Shown: positions 1,455 through 24,600 of the stretch, piece after piece | Position numbering within the stretch: position 1 is the first letter of the stretch | How the letters are laid out: each line of letters begins with the position of its first letter | NCBI GenBank assembly: GCA_029259115.1 | Contig: JAPDJO010000050.1 | Location: 1 to 46,049, forward strand | Length of the DNA stretch: 46,049 nt | Source: Thermoplasmatota archaeon | Lineage (GTDB): Archaea > Thermoplasmatota > E2 > DHVEG-1 > B18-G2 | Reading direction: 5' to 3' | Position numbers and translations under genes: made by a program | Notes under the pieces: generated by a model | What the model was told of the DNA's origin: nothing | Databases searched by the model: none | What the model saw: only the letters and a program-made list of their open reading frames with translations

Positions 1455-1456
1455 AA

Positions 1457-2445: not shown

Positions 2446-5400
2446 ATGAAAAAAAAGACGATTGGTAGGTTGTATAAAGCGGTATCTCCAGTAATAGGGA
2501 CCATACTTGTGGTTGCTATAATCATATCTTCTATAACCGCTGTGATGATATGGGGCATACCTTACTTAGAAAGAACCAAGGCAGAGGCTCAACAGAGAGA
2601 TGTGTATCATCAGTTAGATCTTGCAAATGAGGCTATAAGAGATCTAATAAGCAGTGGTAAAGGTTCATCGAGAGAAATTAGATTATCCATGGAATCTGGG
2701 ACAATATCATTCGAAAACGAGCAACCAAGCCATGTCCTCATGTATGCAACGAGTAGCGACTACAATTTCTCTGTCGGTGGGTTAGATGATCTTGATAACA
2801 ACTTCATATTGAATATGGAAAAGGGAAGCGCAGATAAGGCAAATATATATAGATTTAATCCAGAAACATCTCTGCCCCCATATTATAGCACATCAAGCGA
2901 GCCAACAGCCTCCTACTATGGTAGTTTCTTGAGAAGAGTTCCTTTCAATCTCACCGATTCAAATAATACTGCTTACAAGATAACGAGCGGTAGTAGTACA
3001 CCACCTTCTCCTACGTCATTCACTTCAGAATACACATCGACAGAATATCAAAATGCTGGATATGATGATGACGAGAGCAATGCTTGGCATGGAGCAACTG
3101 GTACAGATGGCAAGTTTACAAATCTGATGTATAAATTCAAGATAGGAGATTATAATGCTAGTAATTTAGAAAAGATGGAGCTGAGATGGAAAGGCATAGA
3201 TACGCTCTCGGATGGAGGGTATCAGGGATTTTACATATGGAACCGATCCTCCAGTTCTTGGGAGCAGATAGGAGGAAATGGAGTCGCTTTGAGATTCGAT
3301 GGATTAAATGATAGAATCAATGTTCCGTGCAAGGAATATCTCAAGTATAAAGGAGGAAATTTAACCATTTGTGCATGGGTGTATGTTGAGGATGGAGAAA
3401 CTAATGGAAAAATAGTTTCTAAACCATGGAATGGACAAGGTCAGTACAATTATTATCTCTACCTCACTGGTGGAAAATTGGCACTATTTGTTGGTAACGG
3501 TACAGTATCCAAATATATAGTAGATCCTGATCCTGTATCTACAAAAGAATGGCATTACGTGACTGGAGTTTTGCACAGCGATGGGCTTATGGAGCTGTAT
3601 GTGGACGGAGAACTCAAAGCATCTGATAGCTATTCCATAACTAACTGGAATCCATCAAAAGGGGATCACAACATTAATCTGTGCATAGGTTCGCTTTACC
3701 CATACGGTTCTGGATGGGCTGGCAATGAGGGCTTTTCCTTTAGAGGTTTACTGCGTGACGTGTGCATATACAATGATTCTCTTGAGCAGAGCGAAATACT
3801 CCAGAATATGGAAGGGAACATGGTTACAGATGACTTACTAGGTTGGTGGAAACTTGATGATGCCCAAGGAACAGTTGCTCATGACGTAGCTAGACGCAAC
3901 GATGGTACACTTATGGATGGATGCAAATGGATAACAAACAGGGGAACATTTGCTTTGGAATTCGATGGAGTGGATGATTATGTGGGAGTGCCTGATTTAA
4001 ACCTTCATAATTCAAATAGTTTAACTATCGAAGCATGGGTGAAAGGCAACTCCTGGGCAGGTCAACCAGCTATAGTATTTTTTGGTGATGGTATATCGGC
4101 AGGTCAGTGGTCTATCGTTTTGTCGGTTTATAATAATAAATTTAGATTTGGTTTAGAATCCGGTACAACGGATTACAACACATGGGGTAATACAGTGTTA
4201 GATACAGGCGTTTGGTATCACTTGGTAGCAGTCAAAAATGGAACAGTAGTGAGAACATATATAAATGGAGTGCAAGATGACAGCGGAACTGCCCCTTCAA
4301 CAACTAATGATGTTACTAATCATCGAATTGGAGCAATGTATACCACGAACCCAGATTATTACTTCAACGGCACCATCGACGAAGTCCGTATTTACAACAG
4401 AGCATTAACCGCTGATGAAATTTATCAGAATTATCTTGGGAATGTTACAACTGCAGGCTTAGTTTCATGGTGGAAATTTGATGAAGGGTATGGAAATGTC
4501 CTGCACGATTCTGTTGGTGAAAATCATGGTAGGATACATGGTGCACAGTGGATTGACTACAAGAATTTCGCATTAAAATTCGATGGTGAAAGAGACTATG
4601 TATTGATTCCGGATTCAGATAGCCTTGATATTTCAGACAATATTACTGTGGAGACCCGCGTATGGTATGCTGGAGGGAGTAGCAAAACTGTATGGGCAAA
4701 GGATACAGATCATGACATAGGTTGCAACCTTTACGATCCTGCAAGCGACAATTACGCTCCCGGTGACGTAGTTAGATATGCAGTGCCAGAAAATGGAACA
4801 GGGAACTTAATGATCTACGAATTCACTGGAAGTATGGATTCTCACTATGGGAGAACCGGCATATATCTTCGACTAAAGATCGGAGAAAAACCACCGGTTT
4901 CAGAAGATATAGTCAAATTGGAAGTCTGGGATTTAACGGAAAATTGCAAAGTCTTGGAAGATTTATACAAGACTTCGGATTTTGGCACTAAAGATATAAC
5001 AAAATATTGGTATGGTTACCAGATAGGACATCATCCTAGATTTTTCGCATATAGTGGACATTCTTACAGAGTGGTTGTGTACTATTATGCGAATGTCCCC
5101 GTCTATATAGAAAGATTAACATTTGATCGGTATCATAGACCACCAGTAGAGAAGGGATCAGCGTGGAGATTGTATACGACTGGTGGAACGTTCCAGTTTT
5201 TAGTTTGGCATCCAGATGGCACCTATTCATATGCAAATTATTATGGTTTGACATCATACTGGAGAGGGTGGGTGGACTTAACCGCAAGTTACAGTTCTGT
5301 AGACGGGTTCAAATTATATGTCAATGGTAACGAAGTTACACCATCCTATGTTAGATTCTTGGGTAAGAGTATAAGAACCACATCCAGTCCAGTATACATA

Positions 5401-8400
5401 GGATCCGGTTATCATAAATTTCCGGGAATGGTAGATTATGTTAGGATATATAATAGAGTTCTAACAAGTAGTGAAGTAAAACAAAACTATCTTGAGAAAG
5501 TTACGACCGACGGGCTCGTCTCTTGGTGGGATTTCAACGAGGGTTACGGAAATGTAGTGCATGATAAAATCGGTGACAATGATGGAACCATATACGGTGC
5601 AGATTGGGTCTACACAGATGGAGGCTCCTTAGAATTTGATGGTGTAGACGACTACGTATCTGGAAAGGGAACAGCAACTTTTGATGATTTCACTATAATA
5701 GCTACGGTCAAGCAAGAAGGATGGCATGGACACCATGAACCTATCTTTGCGTGGGCTAACTCAACAGATGGTTTGTATCTGATATTGAGCAAAGATAAGT
5801 ATCTGAGAGTCGGCGTAGAAGTTAATGACAATTTCCACCATGAAGGACTGTACTACATAGGGGATAACTACATTGGGAAAGAAAAGATGTATGCGGCTAG
5901 ATGGGATGGTGATACTGGTTCAGTAAAGGTTTACATAGATGGTAATTCAGTTGGCGAATCCACATCATATCCAACTGGGTCGATAGACCTAAGCAAAGGT
6001 GTTAACTTCTGTATAGGGAAGAGCACAACTGGCTACTGGGGCGAAACTAGTGCAAGATTTTGGGGAAAGATATCGGAGATTTTGGTTTACAATAGAGCAC
6101 TCAGTGATAGTGAGATACAAGATATATACTCGGGCAGTATAGTAACGAGCGGTTTAGTAGCATGGTGGAGATTTGACGAGGCTAAAGGCATAACTTTAAA
6201 TGATTTTGCTGGTAACAATATAGGAAAACTCGTTAATGGCCCGGTTTGGAGAGGAGATATACCTCCCACAAACGAGAACCTCTATGTCGAAACAATTTTA
6301 GGCAATCTTTCAAACTACGTAGATGACTCTAACTATGTAAAAATATGTGTGGTTGGTGGTAAAGGAGAAAGTTTCACTTCTCCTTCATCCTGTACATCTT
6401 GGTACTATGACAGAAACAAAGCATATTGTACATGGATAGATGCCTATAATGAGGATGAGTACTATGTGCAATACAGTACAGATGGGGGAGCCACTTGGAC
6501 TAACGATCCCAATTCACCTTACTTCCCTGGAACAACGCAATCTGAACCAATATATTTCGGTCCAGAAAAACAGATAAAATTCAGAGTAAAATCTGTTAAA
6601 GATGGCATATCTTCAGGATGGTCAACCTCTGGTTACATATATACAGCTCCAGGAAAACCAGAGAATGTTCAGGCTGTCTCTGTGTCATCGGATTCGATAA
6701 ATGTAACATGGACAGACAACTCGAGTTATGAGTCTGGATATGTTATTTATAGATCTACAAATGGTGGAAATTATGAATTTTTAACATCTGTGCCAGCTAA
6801 TACAGAATATTACCTAGACACAAGTGTAACTGCTGGTAATACCTACACATATAGAGTCTACGCGTACAAGAGCATAAGTAATCCCAAGATAAATATATAT
6901 AGTGATCCTGGAAATAGTTCTCTCGTATCCCCAACAGAATGGTGGGATACAAACTGGCAGTACTATAAAGTCTGCAATATCGATACAAACGGGTATTCAG
7001 GATACTATCAGATGAGAATAAAAGTCGGTTACAGTTCGGGGGGAGACGTATCATGTGAAGGTCATTGCCAACCAGATTTTGACGACATCCGTTTTGTCGA
7101 TACCGACAACTCGACAGTGTTGCCACATTGGAAAGAGACTTATGTGGATTCTCAATTTGCCATATTTTGGGTTAATGTTTCAGCAGATGCAATGAGTGAT
7201 GGAAAAATACTCATGTATTATGGTAACCCATCTGCTACTGATGCAAGCGATGGAGATTCAACTTTCATATTTTTTGATGATTTTACAACAGATACAACAG
7301 GCAATTATAACATAGTTGCAGGAGATGATAATAAAGCCCACTTGGTAGGCAATAATTTCTTCAGTGTGCAAGATGGAGTTCGAATGATATGGAAGACTAA
7401 AATTACAAATTTTGATGCTAATCAATGGGGCTCTTATATAGGTTTTTATTATGGAGATGTGTTAAATTCTCCACGTTACATGAATAACAGATGGTGGAGT
7501 ATTATTAGTAGCGACACAGATGCTGGAGCAAGCGATAGTCCATTAACATTAGTTTTGCAGGCAGGTTCAGAAAAAGCAGGGACTGTTACAAAAGTAAAAC
7601 AGGTAATGCAATTTAGCTTGAATAGAGCATATTATTTTGAGCATTGTATGTCTCAAACAAAAATAAAAACAAGAGCCAGAGATGCTAATTTTTTGGAGAT
7701 TACATCTGCAGAGCTAACAACAGGAATAGCTGATATTTCCACACTAAACTATGCAATGATTATGCTATGGCATTGTAATGAAGATGGCACAGAGTGGGAT
7801 TGGTCATGGAATTCCGTAGAACAAGCAGTAAGAATGTACGTAAAGAGAGATGGTTGGAGTATAATAGATACACTTAGTGATTGGTTTGGTATTGCTAAAT
7901 GGGTTGATACAGAACCACGATGGAGCGGTTTCAGTAGTGAACAAACTCAACCAACAGTTCTATGCCTTTCAGGTGACACTCGAGTAGAGATGATTAGTGG
8001 TGAGTACAAGGAGATACAAGATATAGGAAAAGGAGACATACTTCTATCCTACGATCCTGAAAGAGGAGAGTATACATCATGCAAGGTCGTATCTGTAGGT
8101 ACATCTACCCAGCAAGTTTATAGTATAAATGATGGACTGTTGTACATCACGGATACCCATCCATTGTATGCAAGAAAAAGTGATGGGTATGAAGGCTGGG
8201 TTACGATAAATCCAGAAAAGATGAAAGAACATTATGGTATTAGTGAGGTTAGAAAGCTAGAGATCGGAGACAAACTTTATTGCAGATACGATGGATGGGA
8301 TGTAGAGGTAACGTCGATAGTACCTCAAGATGTGAGAGAGGTTTACAATTTAGAGTTAACATACCCATACACATTCTTTGCCAACGGAACACTTACTAGA

Positions 8401-9354
8401 GCTATGCCTTCTACTCACATGAGAAGCTCCTCTCACACGATGTATGAAAACTATGTCGAGTTGTCTATATATTTCATACAGAATGATTCTACTCCACCTT
8501 CTACAACCATAACTTCTACGGATCCAGTACTCGTTGATGGGAAAACAACCTCATCTACAATAACTTTCTACTGGTATAGTACTGACAATCTATGTCCGTC
8601 TGACGATCTTGTCTATTGCTGGATGCTTGTTGGCAGAGATTTGGATTGGAGCAATTGGACTTCTCAAACTTATGTAACATACACAGATCTGGTTCCTGGA
8701 GACTATGTATTCAAGGTAAGAGCCAAAGATCTTGCAGGTAATGTTGAAAGACCATCATCACTCAACACATTATCATTTACCGTATTGGAGGCTAGCGAAA
8801 CCATTTCGATATCTGCATCACCAGGAGTACCAACTACAGTGACTACTAGTGAACCCCTCAAAGGTTTTGTCCTCATTGACTTATACAACGGCAGTGTCAA
8901 CCTAGGTAAGATATGGCTCTTGACACCAGGAGAAGTAGAGTATAGAATACCGACGAGTGAGGGAACTTATGGAGTCTCTCTACTCGATGGAGGGATATCT
9001 ATGATATATCCTGATGGTAGCGCTATTGTAGGAGAGCCCATAATCTCCATGGGGAATTCCATGATCCATTTACATTTCATACATATGTTTGGTAGTACAT
9101 TCTCTTTCTCAGGTAGAGGTACGTGCAAATTCAAGTTTACGCTTTCTCAAAGCAAGATACTCCAGTATCGCGTACCTGTTTATAATCTGAGATTCCAGTT
9201 CTTTGGCGAAACTTCAGAGGGATGGACCAACTATTTCAAGATATATCATTCATTCAAAAAGATGGGAGAAAATGAGGTGGCTAAATTCAATCAACCTGTA
9301 AACTTGGTATTGGGATACTCATCGATAAAGGTTGAGGAGAGTGGGTTTGGATGA
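2446..9354 (+). CDS. Giant pilin-like adhesin (2302 aa): class III signal peptide, 4 LamG domains, 2 FN3, DUF2341, Hint domain, Y_Y_Y/Ig domain, pilin-scaffold C-terminus
   Basis: N-terminus KKKTIGRLYKA|VSPVIGTILVVAII; repeated ALxFDGxxDY...IDEVRIYNRALT...GLVSWWKFDEG LamG units; FN3 (PENVQAVSVSSDSINVTWTDNSSYESGYVIYRS); DUF2341 (DFDDIRF...FWVNV...MYYGN...FIFFDDF); CLSGDT Hint start. GGAGGGG SD upstream. Confidence 0.88.
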   Translation: MKKKTIGRLYKAVSPVIGTILVVAIIISSITAVMIWGIPYLERTKAEAQQRDVYHQLDLANEAIRDLISSGKGSSREIRLSMESGTISFENEQPSHVLMYATSSDYNFSVGGLDDLDNNFILNMEKGSADKANIYRFNPETSLPPYYSTSSEPTASYYGSFLRRVPFNLTDSNNTAYKITSGSSTPPSPTSFTSEYTSTEYQNAGYDDDESNAWHGATGTDGKFTNLMYKFKIGDYNASNLEKMELRWKGIDTLSDGGYQGFYIWNRSSSSWEQIGGNGVALRFDGLNDRINVPCKEYLKYKGGNLTICAWVYVEDGETNGKIVSKPWNGQGQYNYYLYLTGGKLALFVGNGTVSKYIVDPDPVSTKEWHYVTGVLHSDGLMELYVDGELKASDSYSITNWNPSKGDHNINLCIGSLYPYGSGWAGNEGFSFRGLLRDVCIYNDSLEQSEILQNMEGNMVTDDLLGWWKLDDAQGTVAHDVARRNDGTLMDGCKWITNRGTFALEFDGVDDYVGVPDLNLHNSNSLTIEAWVKGNSWAGQPAIVFFGDGISAGQWSIVLSVYNNKFRFGLESGTTDYNTWGNTVLDTGVWYHLVAVKNGTVVRTYINGVQDDSGTAPSTTNDVTNHRIGAMYTTNPDYYFNGTIDEVRIYNRALTADEIYQNYLGNVTTAGLVSWWKFDEGYGNVLHDSVGENHGRIHGAQWIDYKNFALKFDGERDYVLIPDSDSLDISDNITVETRVWYAGGSSKTVWAKDTDHDIGCNLYDPASDNYAPGDVVRYAVPENGTGNLMIYEFTGSMDSHYGRTGIYLRLKIGEKPPVSEDIVKLEVWDLTENCKVLEDLYKTSDFGTKDITKYWYGYQIGHHPRFFAYSGHSYRVVVYYYANVPVYIERLTFDRYHRPPVEKGSAWRLYTTGGTFQFLVWHPDGTYSYANYYGLTSYWRGWVDLTASYSSVDGFKLYVNGNEVTPSYVRFLGKSIRTTSSPVYIGSGYHKFPGMVDYVRIYNRVLTSSEVKQNYLEKVTTDGLVSWWDFNEGYGNVVHDKIGDNDGTIYGADWVYTDGGSLEFDGVDDYVSGKGTATFDDFTIIATVKQEGWHGHHEPIFAWANSTDGLYLILSKDKYLRVGVEVNDNFHHEGLYYIGDNYIGKEKMYAARWDGDTGSVKVYIDGNSVGESTSYPTGSIDLSKGVNFCIGKSTTGYWGETSARFWGKISEILVYNRALSDSEIQDIYSGSIVTSGLVAWWRFDEAKGITLNDFAGNNIGKLVNGPVWRGDIPPTNENLYVETILGNLSNYVDDSNYVKICVVGGKGESFTSPSSCTSWYYDRNKAYCTWIDAYNEDEYYVQYSTDGGATWTNDPNSPYFPGTTQSEPIYFGPEKQIKFRVKSVKDGISSGWSTSGYIYTAPGKPENVQAVSVSSDSINVTWTDNSSYESGYVIYRSTNGGNYEFLTSVPANTEYYLDTSVTAGNTYTYRVYAYKSISNPKINIYSDPGNSSLVSPTEWWDTNWQYYKVCNIDTNGYSGYYQMRIKVGYSSGGDVSCEGHCQPDFDDIRFVDTDNSTVLPHWKETYVDSQFAIFWVNVSADAMSDGKILMYYGNPSATDASDGDSTFIFFDDFTTDTTGNYNIVAGDDNKAHLVGNNFFSVQDGVRMIWKTKITNFDANQWGSYIGFYYGDVLNSPRYMNNRWWSIISSDTDAGASDSPLTLVLQAGSEKAGTVTKVKQVMQFSLNRAYYFEHCMSQTKIKTRARDANFLEITSAELTTGIADISTLNYAMIMLWHCNEDGTEWDWSWNSVEQAVRMYVKRDGWSIIDTLSDWFGIAKWVDTEPRWSGFSSEQTQPTVLCLSGDTRVEMISGEYKEIQDIGKGDILLSYDPERGEYTSCKVVSVGTSTQQVYSINDGLLYITDTHPLYARKSDGYEGWVTINPEKMKEHYGISEVRKLEIGDKLYCRYDGWDVEVTSIVPQDVREVYNLELTYPYTFFANGTLTRAMPSTHMRSSSHTMYENYVELSIYFIQNDSTPPSTTITSTDPVLVDGKTTSSTITFYWYSTDNLCPSDDLVYCWMLVGRDLDWSNWTSQTYVTYTDLVPGDYVFKVRAKDLAGNVERPSSLNTLSFTVLEASETISISASPGVPTTVTTSEPLKGFVLIDLYNGSVNLGKIWLLTPGEVEYRIPTSEGTYGVSLLDGGISMIYPDGSAIVGEPIISMGNSMIHLHFIHMFGSTFSFSGRGTCKFKFTLSQSKILQYRVPVYNLRFQFFGETSEGWTNYFKIYHSFKKMGENEVAKFNQPVNLVLGYSSIKVEESGFG
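7963..8403 (+). other. Hint domain within the giant pilin; N-terminal catalytic residues intact, C-terminal His-Asn replaced by Arg-Ala
   Basis: Block A CLSGDTRVEMISGEYKEIQDI, block B ITDTHP, blocks F/G VYNLELTYPYTFFANGTLTRA|M where VHN|C/S/T is canonical; 147 aa, no endonuclease. Confidence 0.87.
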
Positions 9355-12836: not shown

Positions 12837-12861
12837 TGTGTATATGGAATATGGTGAGAAT

Positions 12862-15800
12862 ATGAGAAGGTTGTATGGAGATAGGAGGGGGGTTGCTTCA
12901 CCTTTAGAGTTCACAACAGCCTTTGCTGTATTCTTTGTAGCATTCGCTTTAATGGCGGTGTATGTTGGTAATGTCCTTGCACCTTTTGAAACAAACAACG
13001 CAAATTATGAAGCCGTAGCTATAGAGATAGCAGAGAAATTGGTGAACAATCCAGGGAGAACATTAAAGGGAAATGTTGAGTGGGAACTAGAGCCTGACCA
13101 GCTAGCATATCTTGGTTTAGCGATGCCAAAGCCAGTATACGATGTGTATTTCTATGGAAACGGAACCATAGAGGTGGTGGTTGACAAGGTAAATGAATAC
13201 TTTGATCTAGCAGTTGAAGACCTCTCATACTCCCCAAGAACACCAACAGTGATAGAAGGCTCGAAGATATACGTATCTTTCAAGGTAAAGAATCTTATGA
13301 GTGGTAATGCATCTGCGTTTAACTACACGGTCCAGATAGACAATTATGTTCAGTATCAGGGAAGATACAACAAGAGTCTAGCACCTGGAGAGGTTGCAAG
13401 CTTTGACAACATAGAGGCAACCGTTCCTTCCGATGGAAAGAGCTATTATGTCCTGATGGTTTCAATCTTCCCAGATGTTCAGGATGCGGATATATCAAAT
13501 AACGCAGCATCCCTAACACTAATTGTTGAAAGCGGAGGAGATACTGACACAGACATAGATACGGATATAGATGGAGATAGCGACTGGTTGGTGATAGAAA
13601 TAGATGGTCCAACGAGCATCTATGTTCCTATAAATCCGAGAACAGGTTCACAGACCGGTAGTATAGGTGGAAGCACATCATCTGGAGGAATAAAATACGC
13701 GAATGTGACCGCTACTTATACGGTTGAGAGATTAGAGAGGAACAGTGGAGCGTCTGTTGCGTTACCTGTTTACTTCTGGTGGACAGGTGGTCCCTCTGGA
13801 CCAGCGGAGGGGTTAGAACTCCGATCATATAAGGTTACCTTCACCAAGGACGATGAAGGAAATCACATGATATCCTGCAGTGCAAGAGATGCTGAGGGCG
13901 TGACAGGTGATGCTCGCTCACTACTAGTTCATGTCGAGGTTGAGAAGATAACTGTTGTGATAAACGGTCCTACCAATGTAGAGGCTGGCAGAATATATAC
14001 GTATACGATAACAGCATATCATAATGGTGAGGAATTCTGGTTAGCTGGCAGATCTCGAGCTTATGATGTGCATTGGTCAACAAATGGACTAGTTAGCGAG
14101 GGATTCAATGGAGCTTGGTACAAATGGAATGAACCAGGCAACTACACTGTGGCTGTGTGGGGTAAGATAGACTATAAAGGAGAGATACTTGGATATCCTT
14201 TCTACGCATCGATATCTGTAAGAGTAAATGGCTCAGATTCATCTGACACATGTTTCCTAGCAGGAACAAAGATACTGATGGCTGATGGAACAACTAAGAA
14301 CATAGAAGACGTTAAAGTAGGAGATCTTGTGAAGTCTTATGATACTGAAACTGGAGAAATTAAGGTGAGTAAGGTTACAGAGGTGTTCCATCACAGCCCA
14401 GATGAGATGGGAGATTACTATCTAGTGATAAACAACGAACTCAAAGTAACTCCGAATCATCCGTTCTATGTCAATGGAAAATGGATTCCAGCAGAAGAGA
14501 TAAAGGTTGGAGATGTGCTGGGAACAATGAAGGTTAAATCCATAGAGAAGGTTTACAAGAAGGTTCCAACATACAACATAGAGGTTGAGCCGTATCACAG
14601 TTACATTCTTGCATTCTCAAATCTAGTGGTTCACAATGGTGCAGCTTCTGGATCACAGACAGGTAGTGGCTCGGTAACACCTCTTTACAGTCTGTCTGTA
14701 GGTGTAACTCCTTCATCTGCTGGATATGTTGATATAACTCCAGCAAAGAATGGTTACTCAAGTGGAGAGACAGTTACTCTGGAGGCAAAGGCATATTCTG
14801 GATACACCTTTGATCACTGGTCTGGAGATGCGAGCGGAGATAATCCAAAGATAACTATAACGATGAACTCAAACAAACAGGTTACCGCTGTTTTCAGGTC
14901 AACTAGTGGAGCTGGAGCTGTACAGGGAACTCAACAATCAGCAAATGCTGTTCTTGTCCCATTGAACGGAGACATATCTGGAGGATCTGGAGGACCAAGT
15001 TTGGATCTCGGTGGGACTGCAGAATCTCTAGGAAATGTGTTAGTAATTACTGGAAACAAGGGAAGCACAAGCAATCCCTTCTACAGTACACCTGTAGGCA
15101 CCCAGCAGGTAAATGTAAATCCATTCAACGGTGGAGAGAACACATGCTTCCTAGCAGGGACAAAGATACTGATGGCTGATGGATCTCTAAAGAACATAGA
15201 AGATGTCAAAGTTGGAGATCTTGTGAAGTCTTATGATACTGAGACTGGAGAGATAAAGACAGGAAAGGTCACGAAGGTATTCCACTTCGGTGCTGACAAG
15301 ATGGGATACTACTACCTGAAAATAAATGGCAATCTAATGTTAACTCCAAACCACATGCTCTATGTCAATGGAAGATGGACTCCTGCTGGAGAGGTAAAGG
15401 TTGGAGATACACTCGGATTTGGAACAAAGGTTTACAGCATAGAGAAGGTATACTATGATTTCAGACCCGTTTATGATCTTGAGGTCGAGCCTTACCACAA
15501 CTACATGGTTCTCACCTCATCCGGTACAGTACTTGCCCACAATGCTACAGCATCCGCGATACTGATAGAGGGAGCCAGTGCTGATAGTGGAGACTCTCAG
15601 CTTGTAGACTCTTCAAGTACAGCAGGAATCGAGGAAGAGGCAAATACAGACGATGATGTAGGTGATAGTGATGATAGCGATATAGATGAGCCTCAGGAGG
15701 AGACAGATACGGAAGAGGAACTTGATGAAGATGTTCAGATCCTGCCGAAAGGTGACTCCACAACTTACGTCTACAACGGAACATCTGTAGATCCATCTGC

Positions 15801-16236
15801 AAAGATTTCAATAATGATATCAAGAATGTACGAGATGGTCCCGAAACCATCTGGAGGAAGTAATGACTGTAGATACAGGAGAATTGAGTATTCTGGGACA
15901 ACAACATCAGGAATACCTTTCCTTAGGGTACTGATGACATCAACTAAGGAAGTGAGCTACGCTACGATAATGCCTGAGAAGATAGAGGCTCTAAGATACA
16001 TACCTTATGAGAAGGCAAAGGATGCGTTACTCGGAGATGCTGGTATAAACGATGTTGACTTCATGATAAGAATAACGAGACTCGATGGATCAGAGATACT
16101 CAGCTATGGTGCTCAATACAAGGATTCATCAACAGCGATTGCAAGTTACAGTAGACAGATAGTGATATATCCAAACGAGATCCTAGAATACGACGGCTTT
16201 ATACCAGCAATACTAACGGTAACGGTATTCAAGTAA
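12862..16236 (+). CDS. Large pilin-like protein (~1124 aa): class III signal, CARDB, Ig/PKD-like domains, two Hint domains flanking an InlB B-repeat, acidic linker, pilin-scaffold C-terminus
   Basis: MRRLYGDRRG|VASPLEFTTAFAVFFVAF; GGTGA SD before ATG 12862; CARDB (DLAVEDLSYSP...DADISNNAAS); two CFLAGTKILMADG...HN units; YTFDHWSGDASG B-repeat. Confidence 0.87.
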   Translation: MRRLYGDRRGVASPLEFTTAFAVFFVAFALMAVYVGNVLAPFETNNANYEAVAIEIAEKLVNNPGRTLKGNVEWELEPDQLAYLGLAMPKPVYDVYFYGNGTIEVVVDKVNEYFDLAVEDLSYSPRTPTVIEGSKIYVSFKVKNLMSGNASAFNYTVQIDNYVQYQGRYNKSLAPGEVASFDNIEATVPSDGKSYYVLMVSIFPDVQDADISNNAASLTLIVESGGDTDTDIDTDIDGDSDWLVIEIDGPTSIYVPINPRTGSQTGSIGGSTSSGGIKYANVTATYTVERLERNSGASVALPVYFWWTGGPSGPAEGLELRSYKVTFTKDDEGNHMISCSARDAEGVTGDARSLLVHVEVEKITVVINGPTNVEAGRIYTYTITAYHNGEEFWLAGRSRAYDVHWSTNGLVSEGFNGAWYKWNEPGNYTVAVWGKIDYKGEILGYPFYASISVRVNGSDSSDTCFLAGTKILMADGTTKNIEDVKVGDLVKSYDTETGEIKVSKVTEVFHHSPDEMGDYYLVINNELKVTPNHPFYVNGKWIPAEEIKVGDVLGTMKVKSIEKVYKKVPTYNIEVEPYHSYILAFSNLVVHNGAASGSQTGSGSVTPLYSLSVGVTPSSAGYVDITPAKNGYSSGETVTLEAKAYSGYTFDHWSGDASGDNPKITITMNSNKQVTAVFRSTSGAGAVQGTQQSANAVLVPLNGDISGGSGGPSLDLGGTAESLGNVLVITGNKGSTSNPFYSTPVGTQQVNVNPFNGGENTCFLAGTKILMADGSLKNIEDVKVGDLVKSYDTETGEIKTGKVTKVFHFGADKMGYYYLKINGNLMLTPNHMLYVNGRWTPAGEVKVGDTLGFGTKVYSIEKVYYDFRPVYDLEVEPYHNYMVLTSSGTVLAHNATASAILIEGASADSGDSQLVDSSSTAGIEEEANTDDDVGDSDDSDIDEPQEETDTEEELDEDVQILPKGDSTTYVYNGTSVDPSAKISIMISRMYEMVPKPSGGSNDCRYRRIEYSGTTTSGIPFLRVLMTSTKEVSYATIMPEKIEALRYIPYEKAKDALLGDAGINDVDFMIRITRLDGSEILSYGAQYKDSSTAIASYSRQIVIYPNEILEYDGFIPAILTVTVFK
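13540..13584 (+). repeat. Asp-X dipeptide repeat linker (DTDTDIDTDIDGDSD)
   Basis: Degenerate 6-bp periodicity (gat act gac aca gac ata gat acg gat ata ...). Confidence 0.7.
14251..14637 (+). other. Hint (BIL-A/PT-HINT-like) domain 1; ends His-Asn, +1 residue Gly
   Basis: CFLAGTKILMADG...VTPNHP...TYNIEVEPYHSY...VVHN|GAASG; 129 aa. Confidence 0.92.
15145..15543 (+). other. Hint (BIL-A/PT-HINT-like) domain 2; ends His-Asn, +1 residue Ala
   Basis: CFLAGTKILMADG...LTPNHM...VYDLEVEPYHNY...LAHN|ATASA; 133 aa; first 38 aa are 36/38 identical to Hint 1. Confidence 0.92.
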
Positions 16237-16239
16237 TCT

Positions 16240-18066
16240 CTACTCCTTTTCTTTTAAAAGTTGCAGATAAAAGTTCGCAACGTGAGCTATGGTATCTATT
16301 CTAAACCACTGTCTCGTTAGCTTGAATCTTATTCCACCTACTGCCAGAGAGATATTTTTATAGCAGTAGCTTGAGTAATCTGTATTCACAAGATGCATCT
16401 CGTTTACTGCTGCCAGTTCCATTGCCTGCATTATCTTCTCCTGAAGATCTTCTTTTCCTTTCATCTTTGCTAATCTGTATGCATGGATTAAGCCTTCACT
16501 TCTTGATCCATCTGGATAGACATGGTCTCCATAATCGTAGTAGTATCCTCCTAGGTAGTCTGGATAAAGAGAGTTGTTGAACTTATACTGATGCTGAATC
16601 ATCTTTTCAGCTTCATTAAATACGAATTTTATATAATCATCCTCGTTCTTGAATGATTTGATCTTTAACCATTCGAGTATAGCTCCCATTATCCATGATG
16701 TCATCGGTAACTCTCTCAACATATAGTCATACTTGTCATACATCCTGTAGACCAAGAAATCTATAGCCTTCTCAGCCTTCTCAGAAATCTCTTCCTTCAA
16801 ACTCTCGTTCTCACAGATTCTGTAAAAGTCTGCCAGACCTATCAGAGCTTCTCCAGGGTAGTATGTGTTGAAGAAATAACTTTCATTTATCCTATCTTTC
16901 ATGGGATGTATGTAGTAGTATTCAAACTCTCCGCTATCTTTAAGCTGTGCAAGTATATGTCTAGCTAAACCTTCTGATATTGGATAAAAGGTATTGTTTC
17001 CTGTGTATCTCTGATATCTGCTTAGCAAAGACAAAGCTAAGCCGTTTCCACCAAGTTTTGATTGCTGATTATAGAATACATAAAGACCTTTTGGCTTACC
17101 GTTTATCCATCTTACTTGGAGATGCTTTAAGATAAGTTTTATTCCTTTTTTCACAGCTTCTATGTAGCTCTGATTTTTGGTTTCTTGATAGAGATCTAAA
17201 AGAAAGATCAGAGTTCCAGAATGCCTTACTAGATTGTAATCCCCTAAATCAGCATATCCCAGATGACTCTCAACATAGTATATGAATCTCCCATCATCTC
17301 TCTGATGCTTGACAAGCCAATTTGCTGATTTTATGATAACATCCCTTAAGTCATACAAAGTGTATCTGTCTTCTATTGGATAACCTCGGTAGAGAGGAAG
17401 TACTCTATTCTTATAGAGAAGAAGACTCCTCGTTCTGAACTTGTAAAACGTGGAGTTTTTACTCACATTGTAATACATCTCGAGATATTTCAAGACCGAG
17501 TTTATATTTAGCATGCTTTTCGTGTATGCATCGGTTGGAAGGAAAAATATCATACTATCATTTTTCTCAACAGCCAGACCATCCACACCTATCTCCCATC
17601 TGTTTGAGAGGTTAAGGGTTTTTCCGGATACATTGTTTATATCTATCCTTTCCAGATTCGATACTATAACTTCCAGAACTATGCTGGAGTTTTTATCAAA
17701 GCCGGTTAGATTTGTTCTTAGAAGATCTATGCAGTTTCTTAAACTCTCTTGGAAGGTTTTGTTGATAGAGTATGCTCTTCTCTCCTTTCCATCTTTATAT
17801 AAAGTTATGAATACCCAGGAATATGTTCTGTTGAAGGAAAATGAAAAATTTTTGAGATCATCGATTGATAAGGTTTCGTTTTCAAATATCGATCTTTTTA
17901 TCCTCTGCATAAGCTTTATGTCATCATCTGTAACAATCCTGAGGTCTCCGTACAGATAGTTGTAGGGTAGAGAGATATCTATCCCTTTGTTTTTCTGCTC
18001 AAAGCATCCATAGAGAGAAGAGAGAACGAGGAAGAGGGACAGGGATATGGTGAAGTATTTCTTCAT
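16240..18066 (-). CDS. Lipoprotein with an AMMECR1-like N-terminal region and a probable (alpha/alpha)6 barrel; function unknown
   Basis: Lipobox LSSLYG|C; VFITLYKDG and WEIGVDGL (AMMECR1-like); YNLVRHSGT, KLGGNGLAL, YYPGEALI and RIDTIAH helical-barrel motifs. Confidence 0.65.
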   Translation of the reverse strand: MKKYFTISLSLFLVLSSLYGCFEQKNKGIDISLPYNYLYGDLRIVTDDDIKLMQRIKRSIFENETLSIDDLKNFSFSFNRTYSWVFITLYKDGKERRAYSINKTFQESLRNCIDLLRTNLTGFDKNSSIVLEVIVSNLERIDINNVSGKTLNLSNRWEIGVDGLAVEKNDSMIFFLPTDAYTKSMLNINSVLKYLEMYYNVSKNSTFYKFRTRSLLLYKNRVLPLYRGYPIEDRYTLYDLRDVIIKSANWLVKHQRDDGRFIYYVESHLGYADLGDYNLVRHSGTLIFLLDLYQETKNQSYIEAVKKGIKLILKHLQVRWINGKPKGLYVFYNQQSKLGGNGLALSLLSRYQRYTGNNTFYPISEGLARHILAQLKDSGEFEYYYIHPMKDRINESYFFNTYYPGEALIGLADFYRICENESLKEEISEKAEKAIDFLVYRMYDKYDYMLRELPMTSWIMGAILEWLKIKSFKNEDDYIKFVFNEAEKMIQHQYKFNNSLYPDYLGGYYYDYGDHVYPDGSRSEGLIHAYRLAKMKGKEDLQEKIMQAMELAAVNEMHLVNTDYSSYCYKNISLAVGGIRFKLTRQWFRIDTIAHVANFYLQLLKEKE

Positions 18067-18094: not shown

Positions 18095-20683
18095 TTATAC
18101 CTTGGTGAGAATAACCTCTCCTTCTACACCATCATACATCTGTGGATGCTGACTCTTTCCACGGGATGCTGCATATGCTGTCGTGAGAGGAGCAGCATAA
18201 GCAAAAGCCTCTTCAGCAGACACCATCCCGTCTTTCTCATAGCCGTTCACCCCATCTGCTGCCCCCTTCATTCCCTGCGCGAGATAATATCCAAAAACAC
18301 CGCTTCTCAGGGCATCAAATGCCCACGACGATTCATCATCCATAGAAGATGCCAAGATCAATCTACCCTCACCTTGTATATATGACATGAATCCACCAGA
18401 CTCACAGAATTCTAGTATGAGAACTGTCTTGTTTGTGTAAAGTTTATCAAGGAAATATTCCTCAAAGAGGGTGTAAGGTATACCACCGCACTTTTCGTAT
18501 GTAGCAAACCCTGTATCTCCTCCATGTCCTGCAAAGTAGAAAAGAACAACATCATCCGCATCTTCCTTATCCGCTGTTTCGTTTAGGGCTTGATATACCT
18601 CACTTGATGTTGCATCTAATAAAAGTGTTACACTCCATCCACTCTCTACCAGCAGAGATGCTATGTTTTCTGCATCATTTCTTGCCCATTTTGCTGGTTT
18701 ACTAACCTCGTAATTTTCACATCCAACAACTACAGCCCAGCGCTCTGTAACTCCATCTGGCTCATTTCCTTCATACTCGCCATACTCTCTGAAACAGAGA
18801 TCAACATCCAGCTCTTTCCATTCTCCATTTTCATATGCATAGGCTGAACCTCTTTTATACGGATTGTTACTTCCATAGAATATCTTGTAGTAGTTTCTCT
18901 CATTTCCTGGTTTAACTATCATTTTAGCTACAATATAATACTCTTTGTGCAATTTCATATTATAGTTGCTCAGATCAAAATAGAACCATCCCTCTCTTGG
19001 CAGATCTCTTGGATCCATAGTCACATACGCTATATCTTCTCCATCTAATGATTCTCTAAATGAGATTTTTAAATATCCCATTATCCACCAGCCTGTTGGT
19101 TCTGCTGGTTGTATATTACCATTCGATGTTTTCTTGTTTACAGTTATCTTATTCAGCTTCATCCTTATAAATGATAGAATTTTAGCAAGCAATCCCTTGT
19201 CTTTGCCTCTGCCTGCTAATATGGAAGAGAGAGATGATGCAACACCGCCGTTATCAGTACTATCAAAACCGGTCTTTTTCCCTATAAGTAGCTCTATGCC
19301 TACAAATTTTATGTACTTCTTTGGTTTGAAGGACTGAGCATACATCTTGTCTCCATACAGTTTAAAGTATCCATCTCGCTTTTCTTGTCTCTGGTCGATC
19401 CCTCCTCCTGCTGGCACTTTCGGTTTATCTCTAGGCTTTATCTCTATTGATTTGTATGCTATTCCCTTGCTTCCATTGTTATCAGTTATCACGAGTTTTA
19501 TTGTGTATCTTCCTTCCTGCTTGTATGTGTAGAGAGCCTTTTCACCATAGACAACATCTCCATTTCCGAGATACCATGTGTAGTTTACTATAATTCCATC
19601 TGGGTCATAGCTTTGAGATGCATTCAAAACAATAACTTCATTTACATAGCCAATGGAAGGAACTTCTGCTACTGCGATAGGCTCAGAGTTCCTCAGTGCC
19701 CTCGTTATCTTTATTTCGTAATTCCCTTCTCCTTCACCACCGCTCTCAAAATCAATCACTCTGACACGTATCACATACCTTCCTTCCTTTCTATAGATGT
19801 GGTTTATCTCTATAACCTTTCTTTCTGTGAATATGATCTGAGGTATGCTTCCATCTCCCCAGTCTATGTAGTAGCGATATCTGAAAGTGCTGATATTGTT
19901 CTCTACATCTACGGACAAAGTTGTGAATTCTACCTTGCCTGTTGATACCTCAACAACGAAGGGAATACTTACGCCCGTAGAATAGCTATCTGCAGGTTTT
20001 GATGGATATACAGAGACACAAAGCTCTGGAGTTTCGAGCACATCTATCCTTTTGCTTAAACCTCTATAACCGTATTTTTTCACTTCTATGACATACCTTC
20101 CGTGATCTTCTGGGGTTAGTTTTACTACACCATTACTTGATGTGTACCCATAGTCTACAGCTAGAAGGTGACCTACCTTCCTCAGAGTAACTTTTGCACC
20201 CTTAACAGGTCGAGAGGTATCTCTTTCGAGAACCCTCACGTAGAACTCCTTGTATTCATAAACAGAATTACCGTCGTTTATCTCTATCTTCAATTCCTTC
20301 TCAGGAGAATAGACCAACACCTTGACAGTCCTCTCCTTCGTTACACCATCACATGTGACCTTAGCCTTCGCCTCAAAGTATCCTACCTTCTTGTAAGTGT
20401 GATACAGCTTTACATAATCATAATCTGTATAGCCTATTATCTTGGGGCTGCCATCTCCAAAATCTATCTCGTATCTATATTTTCCAGTATGAACAGCTGT
20501 AGTAGAAACGAGTTCTTCAATCTCTAATTCAAAGCTTACCTTTGTACCTTTCTCGATCTTGATGAAAGTCTTTCCGTTAACCGTGAAGCTTTTTATATCA
20601 AAAGAGCCAGATGTTGCCAATGAGTTTACACCTGAGAAAATGAACATGCCAACCACAGCTAAAGCGAAGATAATCTTCCTCAT
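18095..20683 (-). CDS. Secreted caspase-family (peptidase C14-like, clan CD) protein with PKD domains
   Basis: Signal peptide; PKD motifs (IDFGDG, IDWGDG, SYDPDG..YTWYLGNG); C-terminal RWAVVVG..Y, NDA, FYFAGHG (His), LEFCESGGF (Cys), DGMVSAEEAFAY, QHPQMYD. Confidence 0.85.
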   Translation of the reverse strand: MRKIIFALAVVGMFIFSGVNSLATSGSFDIKSFTVNGKTFIKIEKGTKVSFELEIEELVSTTAVHTGKYRYEIDFGDGSPKIIGYTDYDYVKLYHTYKKVGYFEAKAKVTCDGVTKERTVKVLVYSPEKELKIEINDGNSVYEYKEFYVRVLERDTSRPVKGAKVTLRKVGHLLAVDYGYTSSNGVVKLTPEDHGRYVIEVKKYGYRGLSKRIDVLETPELCVSVYPSKPADSYSTGVSIPFVVEVSTGKVEFTTLSVDVENNISTFRYRYYIDWGDGSIPQIIFTERKVIEINHIYRKEGRYVIRVRVIDFESGGEGEGNYEIKITRALRNSEPIAVAEVPSIGYVNEVIVLNASQSYDPDGIIVNYTWYLGNGDVVYGEKALYTYKQEGRYTIKLVITDNNGSKGIAYKSIEIKPRDKPKVPAGGGIDQRQEKRDGYFKLYGDKMYAQSFKPKKYIKFVGIELLIGKKTGFDSTDNGGVASSLSSILAGRGKDKGLLAKILSFIRMKLNKITVNKKTSNGNIQPAEPTGWWIMGYLKISFRESLDGEDIAYVTMDPRDLPREGWFYFDLSNYNMKLHKEYYIVAKMIVKPGNERNYYKIFYGSNNPYKRGSAYAYENGEWKELDVDLCFREYGEYEGNEPDGVTERWAVVVGCENYEVSKPAKWARNDAENIASLLVESGWSVTLLLDATSSEVYQALNETADKEDADDVVLFYFAGHGGDTGFATYEKCGGIPYTLFEEYFLDKLYTNKTVLILEFCESGGFMSYIQGEGRLILASSMDDESSWAFDALRSGVFGYYLAQGMKGAADGVNGYEKDGMVSAEEAFAYAAPLTTAYAASRGKSQHPQMYDGVEGEVILTKV

Positions 20684-21543: not shown

Positions 21544-21675
21544 GAAAGTTTTTTAATCTGAGTATATAAAAATCCCTCATCTTATCTTAAGAAGGCAATC
21601 AAAAAAGAGAAGGTATATTTTGTACCAATAAATTTATATATTGAGATAGATATAAATTTAGTTCGGGTGAGAGTA

Positions 21676-24600
21676 ATGTCCGAGAAGAGATTGAAATCTA
21701 TCATGGTTTTAGCAATCATAGCTATACTGATAACACCAGCTGGAATCACGATGGCTAGACCTCCTGCACCAGGAGATGGAGATTTACCAACAGAGGATAC
21801 ATCTCCTGTTGATGGTGGAGATAGTGGTCCTACTCTTCCAGATGATCCTTCTATCATACCAGATGATGGATTTCCAGATAATCCCCCGTTTCCAGGCTAT
21901 GGAGCTCCTCTCCCAGATATAGGATGTGGGGCAGATGGGTATTACCAAGCTGATGATTATGGCAGAGTCACTTTTAAATTAAAGATAACAAGACCTCCAA
22001 TAAAGGGAAAATGGTATCTTGATTTTGGAGATGGTAGAAGTGTGAAAGGGGATATATCAAGAGATAATCTTAATGGAAGTAGCTGGTATTTAGAGGTAGA
22101 TCATACGTATTCAAGAAAAGGTGTTTACATTGCTGTTTTCAAAATCATATATCTTGGGGATCATGTAGAGGCTGACTGGGCTCCAGTATTTTATGGGTAT
22201 GAGCCCAATTTCAACCCCTACAAGAGGTTGTCTTGGTATGGTACAATGTATTCATATGTCTGGTGGATCAATTCATGGGACATTCCACCAAACGAAAACT
22301 CAAAAATATGGATAAAGATGCCAGATGAAAGTTTCAGATCCCAGCTAATAAAATTCGTCAAAGAATTTTACACCCCTATAGGATATTGTGACAATACATC
22401 CTTGGAGAGAGTAGAAAGAATGGTGAACATTCTAAAGAACAGTTACACGATTCCACCCAAAAATCTCTCACAGTATCTGTATATACCTTCAGGTTACAAG
22501 AAGTCTGGAAGATGGAGACCTGATTATGTTGTTGGAAGAGAGAGACTCTATTTTGTAGGCGAAACAATCAAGTTCAATATATATTACAGAAATACGGGTA
22601 CCACGGCCGTAGAGGAACAGAGAATAAACTGTTACTTACCATACACTCTTTACTTTATATCCGCATACTACAAAGGAAAAAGGATAAATCCATTCCCCTA
22701 TCCTTCACCCTATTTCAACCCACATAATCCCACACTTCTTATAGGGTATTCGAATTCCTATGGAAGAGATAATCCACAGAATCCTCTATGGATAGGTCAC
22801 AGATATGCAGACTGGCATTTCTTCCCATTTACGAGATTAAGCTTTACACTGCCTGGTAAGATCTATCCAGGAGAGGTAGTTAATCTGACAATCGTCTGTT
22901 ATGTAAGATCCCCGCCTGGTATCAAATCCCTAGCTGATTGGGGTGTGTGGTGGGATCCGAACTGGAGATCAAATGATAGAGCAAAATATGCTCCAACCTT
23001 GGCAATTGTTGCAAGTTGCTCAGGATGGGGCGAATACGGACCTACAGAAACTGCAACAAAAGCAGAATTCACGATTATTCACAGACTAAAACATTACACA
23101 TTGACCGCTAAAGTTGCTTCAGGTAGAGGGAACATATCATTGCCAATATTTGTTGGCGGAAAGAGACAGAAGGTAGTTTATGTGACTTACAGGTTATCTA
23201 AAAATGAATCATACAACTGGACTGAGCCAAACTATCAACCCAAAATAGGAGACACCACCTTCATAGATCGACTTATCGTAGATGATAAAGTCATATATCT
23301 ACCACCCATATATCTGAGAGACCTGAGAAACCTGACAATCCTAGACAAAAATATTACTCGAGTCTTTTATCTTTCCTCTGATCTAGACGAGGAGAATATA
23401 ACGAGAATTATTACGAACATACTAAGTGCTGGAGGAAGATTCAAGGTCGATATACTCTCTTTGTACATCAGTGATGGTATACTAACAAACAGTAGCGCAA
23501 CTGTATGCTACGAGAACTTCTATGCCCACAGAAGAGTCATTAGACCAGAAGCCATACCAGAGGAGTCGTATGAGTTTGACCACTGGGAGGGAGACATTAG
23601 TAAGGCTATAACAGGTTCAAATAAGAAAAACCCAACCGCAGTCATTATGGATGACGACAAGATGATCCTGGCTTACTTCACGGAAAAAGGAGAGATTTAT
23701 TACTCTCTGAATGTAACTGTTGTTGGTAACGGAAAAGTGGAGTTGAATCCGCCTGGAGGAATTTATGAAGAAGGCACTGTGGTGAATCTAACAGCCATAC
23801 CAGACTATGGCTGGAGATTTGATCACTGGTCTGGGGATGTAAGCGGAAGTGATACAGAAGCTCATATAGTGATGAATTCAAACAAAACAGTTACTGCATA
23901 CTTTGTCAAAGAAAATAACACCCATACACTCAGAGTTTATGTGAATCCATGTGGATCTGGTTACTTCTATGTGAATCCGCCTGGTGACTACTTTACCCAC
24001 GTAGAGTTAGAGTATCCAGAAGGAGCAGAGGTAAACATAAAGGCTATACCCATTTCTAGCACCTACGTTTTCGATCACTGGTCCGGAGATGCAAGTGGGA
24101 GTGATGACACCATAACGATAACAATGGATGCAGACAAAACAATATATGCACACTTTAGAGTAAACGATTCCTCAAAATCTGCTTCCATAGAATTTGAAAT
24201 TAATGATAACAACGATACTCTAACGGTCAAAAGCTTCGAGCCAGATAATCTCAAATGGGATAATCTCACCATATATTGTTATAACACCACCTATGATGTA
24301 AGTGTGTTAGAGAAGGAAGGCTTTGTTCATATAGGAGATGTGATTGATGTAAAAGAGGCAGGCTTAACTAGAGAAGTTACTGTTGAGATTTGGTTCGAAG
24401 ACAGTGGAACCTTTGTATTGCTTGCAAGTTACCAACTATATATATCACCATCTTCTGCCACCAGGTATTACACCTTGGACATACAAATTATTCCATCAGA
24501 TGGAGGTCAGGTCAAGGTAAAACCATCAGGATATTGGTTCAAGGAGGGAGAAACAGTAACAATCGAAGTGTATCCATCAGATGGCTACGAATTTGATGGT

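Follow-up and report, generated by a model that had tools for sequence, protein, structure and literature searches.

We analysed a stretch of 46,049 nucleotides (nt) from a Thermoplasmatota archaeon (GTDB lineage Archaea; Thermoplasmatota; E2; DHVEG-1; B18-G2), corresponding to positions 1 to 46,049 of the forward strand of contig JAPDJO010000050.1 in the GenBank assembly GCA_029259115.1 and hereafter called the window. It carries a pilus gene set whose final gene, the open reading frame (ORF) 12838-16236, encodes a pilin-like protein with two tandem Hint domains (Hint1 and Hint2) bracketing a segment of 169 amino acids (aa), the cassette. Upstream of this ORF lie the C-terminal part of a gene for a T2SSE/PilB3_C-type ATPase, cut off by the start of the window, two T2SSF platform genes, genes for a giant DUF7289 pilin-like protein of 2302 aa and an 838-aa DUF7266 protein, and two small pilin-like ORFs, with a DUF7288-like gene among the set. 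An assembly ATPase, platform proteins and other pilins are thus adjacent to the ORF, as expected for an archaeal type IV pilin. The genome also encodes one Peptidase_A24 (prepilin peptidase) homolog, on a different contig (35.7 bits, above the cut-off). As the initial annotation had supposed when it spoke of a 'pilin N-part', the protein begins with the sequence RRG/VASPLEF (slashes here and below mark cleavage or domain boundaries), followed by a hydrophobic stretch.

The similarity of the ORF to DUF7287 was weak (aa 24-71, E 0.0023, 19 bits, below the Pfam cut-off of 27). In G012, a genome of the same order, the genes follow one another as in the window, and the last of them encodes a 239-aa pilin with no match in Pfam. 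This minimal ortholog aligned only to aa 10-105 (36% identity, E 8e-21) and aa 1018-1130 (36%, E 4e-13) of the window protein, and six further proteins of 240-257 aa are similar to it. Because it matches both flanking halves and nothing between them, the region from aa ~106 to 1017 is an insertion within the pilin globular domain, made of a CARDB-like domain, a beta-rich stalk, Hint1, the cassette, Hint2 and an acidic linker (Table 1). The CARDB match fell slightly under the Pfam cut-off (E 0.00043, 20.9 bits, cut-off 22.7) and the domain is present too in the ortholog P0102. The 'Ig domain' proposed ahead of Hint1 had no Pfam match, but an AlphaFold2 (AF2) model contained beta strands at aa 442-461, with a predicted local distance difference test (pLDDT) score of ~68. 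The 'acidic linker' deserves its name, since aa 903-1017 contain 30 Asp and Glu versus 7 Lys and Arg in 115 residues. From its sequence and neighbourhood, the host protein would be a minor pilin, encoded by the last gene of an archaeal operon for a type IV pilus-like structure.

Table 1. Coordinates of the host gene, its domains and the third Hint of the window.
Feature	Position	Strand	Description
Host ORF	12838..16236	+	1132 aa; DUF7287-like protein resembling minor type IV pilins; both Hints lie in a large insertion
Class III-type signal (to RRG/V) and hydrophobic N-terminal helix	12838..12972	+	aa 1-45, from sequence
Pilin globular domain, N-half	12865..13152	+	aa 10-105; 36% identity over 96 aa to the 239-aa ortholog
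CARDB-like domain, start of the passenger	13204..13509	+	aa 123-224; Pfam CARDB
Beta-rich, Ig-like region ending in the linker GSDSSDT ahead of Hint1	13585..14250	+	
Hint1, A-type BIL-like	14251..14637	+	aa 472-600, 129 aa; Cys1, TPNH, terminal HN, +1 Gly
Cassette	14638..15144	+	aa 601-769, 169 aa; Gly/Ser linker, InlB-type B-repeat, predicted disordered tail ending in ENT
InlB-type B-repeat in the cassette	14695..14901	+	Flg_new_2
Hint2, A-type BIL-like	15145..15543	+	aa 770-902, 133 aa; Cys1, TPNH, terminal HN, +1 Ala
Acidic linker, predicted disordered	15544..15888	+	aa 903-1017
Pilin globular domain, C-half	15889..16233	+	aa 1018-1132; 36% identity over 114 aa to the 239-aa ortholog
Third Hint, other subtype, in the 2302-aa DUF7289 pilin	7963..8397	+	Cys1, TDTH, end FFANGTLTRA, without His-Asn

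A complex prediction for the two pilin halves (aa 19-122 with aa 1000-1132) scored 0.82 versus 0.01 for the best control. This score, which expresses model confidence, passed a mark attained by 58 of 80 solved complexes and by 2 of 110 mismatched pairs. The runs shared at least 87% of the contacts, the partners had a pLDDT of at least 80, and a strand at ~aa 102-105 was paired with one at ~aa 1028-1032. Such a pass was expected because the halves form a single chain in the minimal ortholog; the halves model as one domain, a result that speaks for likeness of fold and not for binding after cleavage. The AF2 model of the minimal pilin had no PDB match at E <= 0.001 with Foldseek, and we made no fold assignment from a PAS/Cache-like sensor candidate whose best VIA-align score (Z 5.1) lay within the noise range. 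A search for a stand-alone C-half gene (aa 1000-1132 against shorter proteins) returned a single protein of 299 aa, a fragment of this gene at 99% identity, which is evidence neither way, and a scan for promoters and terminators gave nothing above shuffled sequences with bacterial-type models, which are unsuited to an archaeon. In four genomes of the same genus (G001-G004, completeness 70-96%), neither half of the pilin domain was matched when the whole protein was searched, and Hint-like matches occurred only in G004 (36-42% identity). We regard this pilin as probable accessory gene content.

The translation of Hint1 reads CFLAGTKILMADG...VTPNHPFY...LVVHN and leads into the start of the cassette, GAASGSQTGSGS; that of Hint2 reads CFLAGTKILMADG...LTPNHMLY...VLAHN, followed by ATASAILIEG. 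The initial annotation had given both copies Cys1, TPNH and HN, and indeed each of them has CFLAGT and TPNH and ends in VVHN or LAHN; its limits for Hint1, cassette and Hint2 were all exact in the translation of 14251-15543. In the whole protein, Pfam matched PT-HINT (E 1.2e-23; 84.3 bits versus a cut-off of 27.7), Intein_splicing (9.2e-19) and Hint (4.2e-18) with two to three stretches each, and NCBIfam matched intein_Nterm (1.4e-10) and intein_Cterm (1.5e-09) with two stretches each. The tandem-Hint signal in this ORF is far above chance. The two copies share 67% protein identity (E 4e-61), and at the DNA level codons 1-45 are 84% identical, codons 46-90 70% and the remainder, at the 3' end, 62%.

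Fold and class could be examined with an AF2 model of aa 441-950, based on an alignment of 27 rows, in which pLDDT reached 90-98 per 10-residue block across both Hints. A sequence search of the PDB gave as top match, over the full length, the pretoxin Hint of 8w20 (E 2.5e-13), and also 2lwy, a domain of the bacterial intein-like (BIL) kind from Clostridium thermocellum (E 1.9e-12), aligned over its whole length (chain residues 5-138, ending in VHN). Foldseek placed first BUBL1 BIL2 of Tetrahymena (6y75, E 3.4e-09, TMt 0.77), next 2lwy (E 1.2e-08, TMt 0.80), and mini-inteins behind them. The description of type A BILs in PMC4031507 lists the intein blocks, a terminal His-Asn and the lack of a nucleophile at the residue after the domain (position +1). 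Both window copies have the Hint fold, Cys1 with TxxH, a C-terminal His-Asn and a non-nucleophilic +1 residue, and they lie without homing endonuclease in a variable part of a non-conserved secreted protein, namely the insertion missing from the 239-aa ortholog. With all these sequence and fold characters in place, Hint1 and Hint2 are best classified as A-type-BIL-like/PT-HINT domains. They do not qualify as canonical inteins, as +1 is Gly or Ala and the flanks are low-complexity linkers instead of a conserved host site. In the sequence and in the AF2 model, these flanks are flexible linkers rather than conserved structural elements, as is usual for BILs. Neither Pfam nor NCBIfam detected a toxin domain after the Hints, and the protein ends in sequence that aligns to the pilin C-half.

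Conservation was examined in a set of 228 proteins (matches of a word-index and of a HMMER search, plus the window protein), 110 of which contained a total of 142 Hints aligned end to end with the seed hidden Markov model (HMM). All 142 had Cys1, 139 the terminal His-Asn and 131 TxxH (TPNH in 89). The +1 residue was Ala in 33, Lys in 24, Asp in 15, Gln in 13, Gly in 12, Met in 9, Glu in 7, Arg and Pro in 5 each, Ser and Val in 4 each, Thr in 3 and others in 1-2 each; Cys was never found. Ser, Thr and Cys together occupied +1 in only 7/142, below background: relative to their overall frequencies in these proteins, Ser (2.8% vs 8.0%) and Thr (2.1% vs 7.4%) were depleted, whereas Ala (23% vs 4.8%) and Lys (17% vs 5.2%) were enriched. 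A looser set of 322 Hints, HN-biased by construction since their ends were set by the first 'HN' past residue 80, had Ser, Thr or Cys at +1 in 38, mostly in arrays of divergent Hints with junctions of the HN-T-C-C type. Because Cys1 and His-Asn are near-invariant, selection probably acts in every copy on both the acyl shift at the N terminus and the Asn cyclisation at the C terminus; because Ser, Thr and Cys are avoided at +1, efficient rejoining is probably not selected. The avoidance carries additional weight because a single +1 mutation is reported, in the part of PMC7664689 that deals with BILs, to convert these domains into efficient splicers.

The cassette contains one divergent InlB-type B-repeat, recognised as Flg_new_2 both in the whole protein (E 6.3e-13, aa 620-688) and in the cassette alone (E 2.5e-13, 50.2 bits); ~80 aa of low complexity follow, up to the C-terminal end NPFNGGENT. 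Pfam gave no match to any ubiquitin family. In the AF2 model, the B-repeat had a pLDDT of 49-62, and the rest of the cassette, like the acidic linker, was below 40 and thus predicted to be disordered. Similar repeats exist elsewhere. Further along the window, the gene at 21667-25035 (+) encodes a 1122-aa protein with four Flg_new_2 B-repeats (E 6.1e-42; 41-47% identity to that of the cassette) and a Big_7 domain, and contig C3 has a 1319-aa frame with additional ones (46-49% identity).

The length and content of the sequence between Hints vary strongly among relatives. In 132 inter-Hint spacers the median was 13 aa; 42 were shorter than 5 aa, 28 measured 5-14 aa (hence 70/132 below 15 aa), 20 measured 15-29, 19 measured 30-59, 8 measured 60-99 and 15 at least 100 aa. 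Among pilins of the 'ASPLEF' type, we found the arrangements Hint-9-Hint (P0008), Hint-10-Hint (P0010), Hint-87-Hint (P0102), Hint-162-Hint-62-Hint (P0003) and, in P0012, one Hint alone. The ortholog P0003, with CARDB-like repeats and 30% identity across its first 222 aa, is 43% identical in its Hints over the full Hint-cassette-Hint stretch; its 162-aa cassette aligned poorly to that of the window and had weak fn3-like Pfam matches, not a B-repeat. Of nine other spacers of at least 100 aa searched with Pfam, three had fn3-like matches below the cut-offs, one low-complexity matches and five nothing. In the Hint-bearing orthologs, the Hints always have the passenger on one side and the pilin C-half on the other; the last Hint of P0008, P0099 and P0010 adjoins the C-half, leaving C-tails of 109-115 aa. 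Because spacers are short and ortholog cassettes differ, the conserved feature is at least one Hint at the junction of passenger and C-half, and not any given cassette.

A tree of 33 Hints from the pilin relatives left 18 of its 30 inner branches unresolved, and only starred or near-starred pairs were used. Sister Hints within one protein were found in P0003 (support 100/96) and P0097 (96/84), and the two window Hints were each other's nearest relatives in this set (68%). By contrast, the second Hints of the close pairs of P0008, P0099, P0010 and P0009 grouped together (84/94), so that both old pairs and recent duplications exist.

The cassette was also followed in natural populations, by aligning contigs from four public runs of hydrothermal-vent and marine-sediment metagenomes to positions 13800-16000; in sets of low depth, uncovered bins carry no meaning. 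Contigs of two other studies spanned the cassette (X2 record 7, 14541-15169; X4 record 12, 14491-15169), and no convincing variant without it was seen in the contigs of the four runs over this region. X4 record 12, from a marine-sediment metagenome, lacks 9 nt at 14976, in frame and within the tail of low complexity, and otherwise shows 2 differences in 670 nt. Two joints, each seen in a single X2 contig, were not counted as deletion variants: one from 14423 to 14539 that skips 115 nt (side 26), and one from 14599 to 15145, found at a likeness threshold of 90, that skips 545 nt, has a side of 41 with 8 mismatches in 59 and is out of register between the Hints, and which probably stems from the Hint pair of another organism. 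Contigs of a metatranscriptome library (X8) cover 14722-14958, 15461-15742 and 15853-16000, which is not proof of transcription.

A search with the whole protein against 61 related genomes gave matches in 38, including those to the B-repeat only; many were clustered Hints in giant frames. An HMM built from the two window Hints and used to scan ten loci from relatives detected 2 to 9 Hints per ORF, with 9 matches in L027, 8 in L030, 7 in L026, 5 in L028, 4 in L029 and 3 in L031; the counts of L026 and L030 include fragments that split single, more divergent Hints. The three Hints of L031 are ~185-205 aa apart and have identical flanks. Giant array ORFs of genomes of the same order lie at 150-8930 (+) in L027, 3889-14469 (-) in L030 and 233-8521 (-) in L026; in L027, junctions such as HN-T-C/C, HN-S-K/C and HN-T-G-V/C leave 1-6 residues between units, with Thr or Ser frequent at +1. 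The word-index search retrieved 90 proteins, with three of the closest labelled 'Thermoplasmata' or 'Thermoplasmatales archaeon'. An exhaustive HMMER search with Hint1 retrieved 18,971 proteins at E <= 0.001, of which 257 reached E <= 1e-30; among the best 150 of the 18,971, ranked by summed score and hence favouring multi-Hint proteins, 72 had at least two stretches (71/150 on a local re-run). P0156 (1656 aa) has 14 Hint stretches. Across the phylum, a sample of 201 genomes yielded 10 with PF07591: that of the window, 8 of the 16 belonging to one family of its order, and 1 of the 5 from a second family of the class. Hints of this kind are thus expanded in one archaeal order.

On balance, we consider it reasonably probable that both Hints are active and act mainly by cutting four bonds, with the pilin halves held together non-covalently and the cassette and the Hints released. 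The precursor would be exported before Hint processing. In each Hint, the preceding peptide bond would be shifted onto Cys1 to give a thioester, and the C terminus of the Hint would be cut via cyclisation of its terminal Asn. Cleavage at the four bonds would yield five products: an N-piece with the pilin helix, the N-half and the stalk, ending in ...SDT; free Hint1; the cassette, with a Gly at its N terminus and a transient thioester at ...ENT; free Hint2; and a C-piece composed of the acidic linker and the pilin C-half. The two halves would make up one domain, kept together non-covalently, with the stalk tethered by a single end. A rod of domains would be hard to fit as a loop insertion, and cutting its far end would turn it into a terminal extension. 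Ligation via the freed amino groups (yielding the junctions DT-GAASG and ENT-ATASA) might be a minor side reaction, and skipping of the cassette or its cyclisation would be less likely than that. Sequence, fold, conservation and architecture are what the analysis shows; from them we infer all the chemistry, where and in what order processing occurs, and what becomes of the thioesters.

The chemistry that the initial annotation had given for A-type BILs agrees with PMC4031507, whose account of these domains describes cleavage at both ends and proposes a route by N-terminal thioester, Asn cyclisation and attack by the freed amino group; from it one would expect a freed cassette to start with Gly and to carry a thioester at its C terminus, and both Hints look competent. 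Likewise, BIL products are predominantly cleaved according to the relevant parts of PMC7664689 and PMC4031507. Several points weigh against the cleavage model. Cleavage alone does not account for the retention of at least two fully catalytic Hints, where one would suffice, nor for the preference for Lys and Ala at +1: the Ala enrichment could equally reflect selection for aminolysis, the Lys enrichment fits transfer chemistry better than plain hydrolysis, and the +1 residues of the window protein, Gly and Ala, are the least hindered amines. Splicing by A-type BILs has been reported at low level (as stated in PMC4031507). The conservation counts are descriptive and not tests, as they come from related, non-independent sequences retrieved by two score-ranked searches, and the AF2 model of the minimal pilin had only a moderate mean pLDDT of 66.

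The initial annotation had gone further, to ligation that could give pilin isoforms with or without the cassette and to a released cassette that could cyclise or form chains; on this model, ligation through the freed alpha-amines would be substantial and put to use. The published precedent, the small residues at +1 with Ala enriched in the family, the long and predicted disordered cassette tails, which could reach an active site, and the persistence of the cassette in contigs of two further studies all speak for this idea. Nevertheless, the efficient +1 nucleophile is avoided, most spacers are too short to be cassettes, and cassette content differs between orthologs. Reviews stress cleavage and disagree about A-type ligation because PMC4031507 reports low-level splicing and PMC7765530, in its passage on these domains, states that they cannot ligate. 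Skipping or cyclisation would moreover require that the amine freed at one Hint attack the thioester of the other without the proximity of an active site. We therefore retain from that proposal the twin, competent-looking Hints and the permitted chemistry, but not ligation or alternative splicing as the selected outcome, nor the cassette as the purpose, and regard the ligation model as unlikely. Similarly doubtful is a transfer of the BUBL kind, in which domain-Hint modules pass the thioester of the stalk or cassette to an amine of another protein, producing covalent cross-links or adhesion. An extracellular, ATP-free version, with the thioester of the stalk and then of the cassette captured by an amine (Lys or N terminus) that belongs to a neighbouring pilus subunit or to a surface protein on a partner cell, seems to us equally speculative; the arrays of up to nine Hints in giant surface proteins would be its multi-shot forms. 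The nearest solved fold is BUBL1 BIL2, which lies between two ubiquitin-like domains and forms an isopeptide with Lys, attaching the upstream one to other proteins without ATP (as described for this domain in PMC8616854); relatives such as L031 have repeated domain-Hint modules, the Lys enrichment at +1 is a slight indication in the same sense, and the Hint of the neighbouring giant pilin has Cys1 and TxxH without HN. Yet no acceptor is known and no recognition module stands beside the Hints, most tandem Hints have almost no intervening sequence to dispense, and extracellular thioesters hydrolyse.

We give less credit still to the view that the Hints are passengers without a use of their own at the protein level, tolerated because they remove themselves, that spread by tandem duplication and gene conversion and serve as DNA recombination handles for the shuffling of surface domains. 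It agrees with Hint1 and Hint2 being closest to each other, with the 3'-ward fall of their DNA identity from 84% to 62%, as after partial gene conversion, with the sister pairs of P0003 and P0097 and with a copy number of 1 to 9 per ORF; PMC7765530, where it treats BILs, places them in hypervariable regions, adding to variability along with genetic rearrangements. On the other hand, there is no homing endonuclease, the position of the Hints between passenger and C-half is fixed across orthologs, the grouped second Hints of P0008, P0099, P0010 and P0009 point to an old pair that was kept, and the contigs of the four runs held no solid deletion variant. Finally, the Hints might be inactive structural spacers, which is very improbable given the near-invariance of Cys1, HN and TxxH (142, 139 and 131 of 142), all present in both window copies. 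Mainly cleaving Hints, with the reservations given above, remain our preferred reading.

Hints of the same kind occur in other carriers. Several bacterial-type pilins of ~800 aa (P0036, P0037, P0043, P0050, P0051, P0053 and P0054) begin with KGFTLIEVL, an N-methylation motif (for P0036, Pfam N_methyl E 9.9e-08), and contain two PT-HINT domains 47 aa apart, with HN/Q and HN/M; because of them, twin Hints in pilins seem not to be limited to archaea. A single inserted Hint of the same clade was found in many alpha-2-macroglobulin-family proteins of ~1700-1900 aa (P0038, P0042, P0044, P0047, P0052, P0056 and others), typically as GG/CF...VHN/K, D or E, one of them with the source label 'Patescibacteria group bacterium'; here the Hint lies inside a protein family with a thioester of its own. 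A third group, with proteins of ~750-970 aa starting with MKGTLFSADF..LRLLE.NTDT (P0029, P0034, P0040, P0045, P0059, P0065, P0066 and P0085), has two or three directly adjoining Hints (VHN-R/CF, VHN-RF/CF).

The window contains a third Hint, of a different subtype, in the giant DUF7289 pilin (ORF 2446-9354), characterised by TDTHP and a 'KSDGYEGW' insert. Because it keeps Cys1 and TxxH and lacks HN, it could form a thioester but would be unable to cleave at its C-terminal end. DUF7289 pilins of G012 (L024) and giants with several Hints contain the subtype as well. The 'FFAN/G' of the third Hint was dropped as a candidate cleavage site, as in relatives FANG precedes xLVHN. Convergent with the twin-Hint pilin gene are a gene for a 608-aa protein with only weak Pfam matches (16240-18066, -) and one for an 862-aa protein with PKD and caspase-like (Peptidase_C14) domains (18095-20683, -). 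Downstream of the pilus operon, at a distance of 9 kb, there is a gene for a large serine recombinase (25187-26008, +; Resolvase E 9.7e-41, Recombinase 1.7e-25).

Secreted proteins of bacteria, toxins and the BUBL loci of ciliates are known to contain BIL-type Hints. In full-text searches that covered few subscription journals, we found no account of their presence in pilins or archaeal surface proteins, or of tandem arrays. If the window Hints cut as predicted, a pilin of two chains could be assembled in this way and a long stalk suspended from a loop; if their thioesters were transferred, this would be a new route to covalent links within a pilus or between cells. Being small, derived from a thermophile and without a +1 requirement, they may also be of interest for protein engineering.

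Compared with known systems, the window Hints most resemble A-type BILs such as that of C. thermocellum (2lwy; PF07591), with which they share a mini-Hint of ~130 aa, Cys1, TxxH and His-Asn, the absence of a +1 nucleophile and of an endonuclease, the position within a variable stretch of a secreted protein, and sequence and fold matches over the full length. They differ in their archaeal host, in a type IV pilin-like carrier whose globular domain is split by the insertion that contains them, and in being tandem, with arrays of up to nine per ORF in related genomes. The pretoxin Hints of polymorphic toxins (CdiA, MafB, Rhs, Umb; 8w20) belong to the same Pfam family, include the best PDB sequence match and are also borne by large surface proteins, but here a pilin C-half follows instead of a toxin and the Hint is duplicated around a cassette. 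Canonical class 1 mini-inteins have the same fold and blocks A, B and G, whereas the +1 residues here are Gly and Ala, the family avoids Ser, Thr and Cys (7/142), and the Hints do not occupy a conserved site of a housekeeping protein. In Hedgehog (Hog) Hints, the Cys1 thioester can pass the N-terminal piece to an outside nucleophile, and the third Hint, without HN, is Hog-like in this respect; both twin Hints, by contrast, have His-Asn, and no sterol-recognition-like region follows them. The closest parallel in layout is BUBL of Tetrahymena thermophila (6y75/6tmm), where a small domain between two BILs would likewise be freed with an activated C terminus. According to the description of BUBL loci in PMC8616854, BIL and ubiquitin-like domains alternate, and BIL2 dispenses the upstream domain via its activated C terminus; in the window protein, stalk, Hint1, B-repeat cassette and Hint2 alternate in the same way. 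The resemblance is limited by a sequence identity of only 25-26%, by an InlB-type B-repeat with a disordered tail in place of a ubiquitin fold, and by an extracellular archaeal instead of a cytoplasmic eukaryotic setting; isopeptide transfer, known for BUBL, would be hypothetical here. By this comparison, a cassette excised by twin Hints would not be new in kind but anticipated by BUBL.

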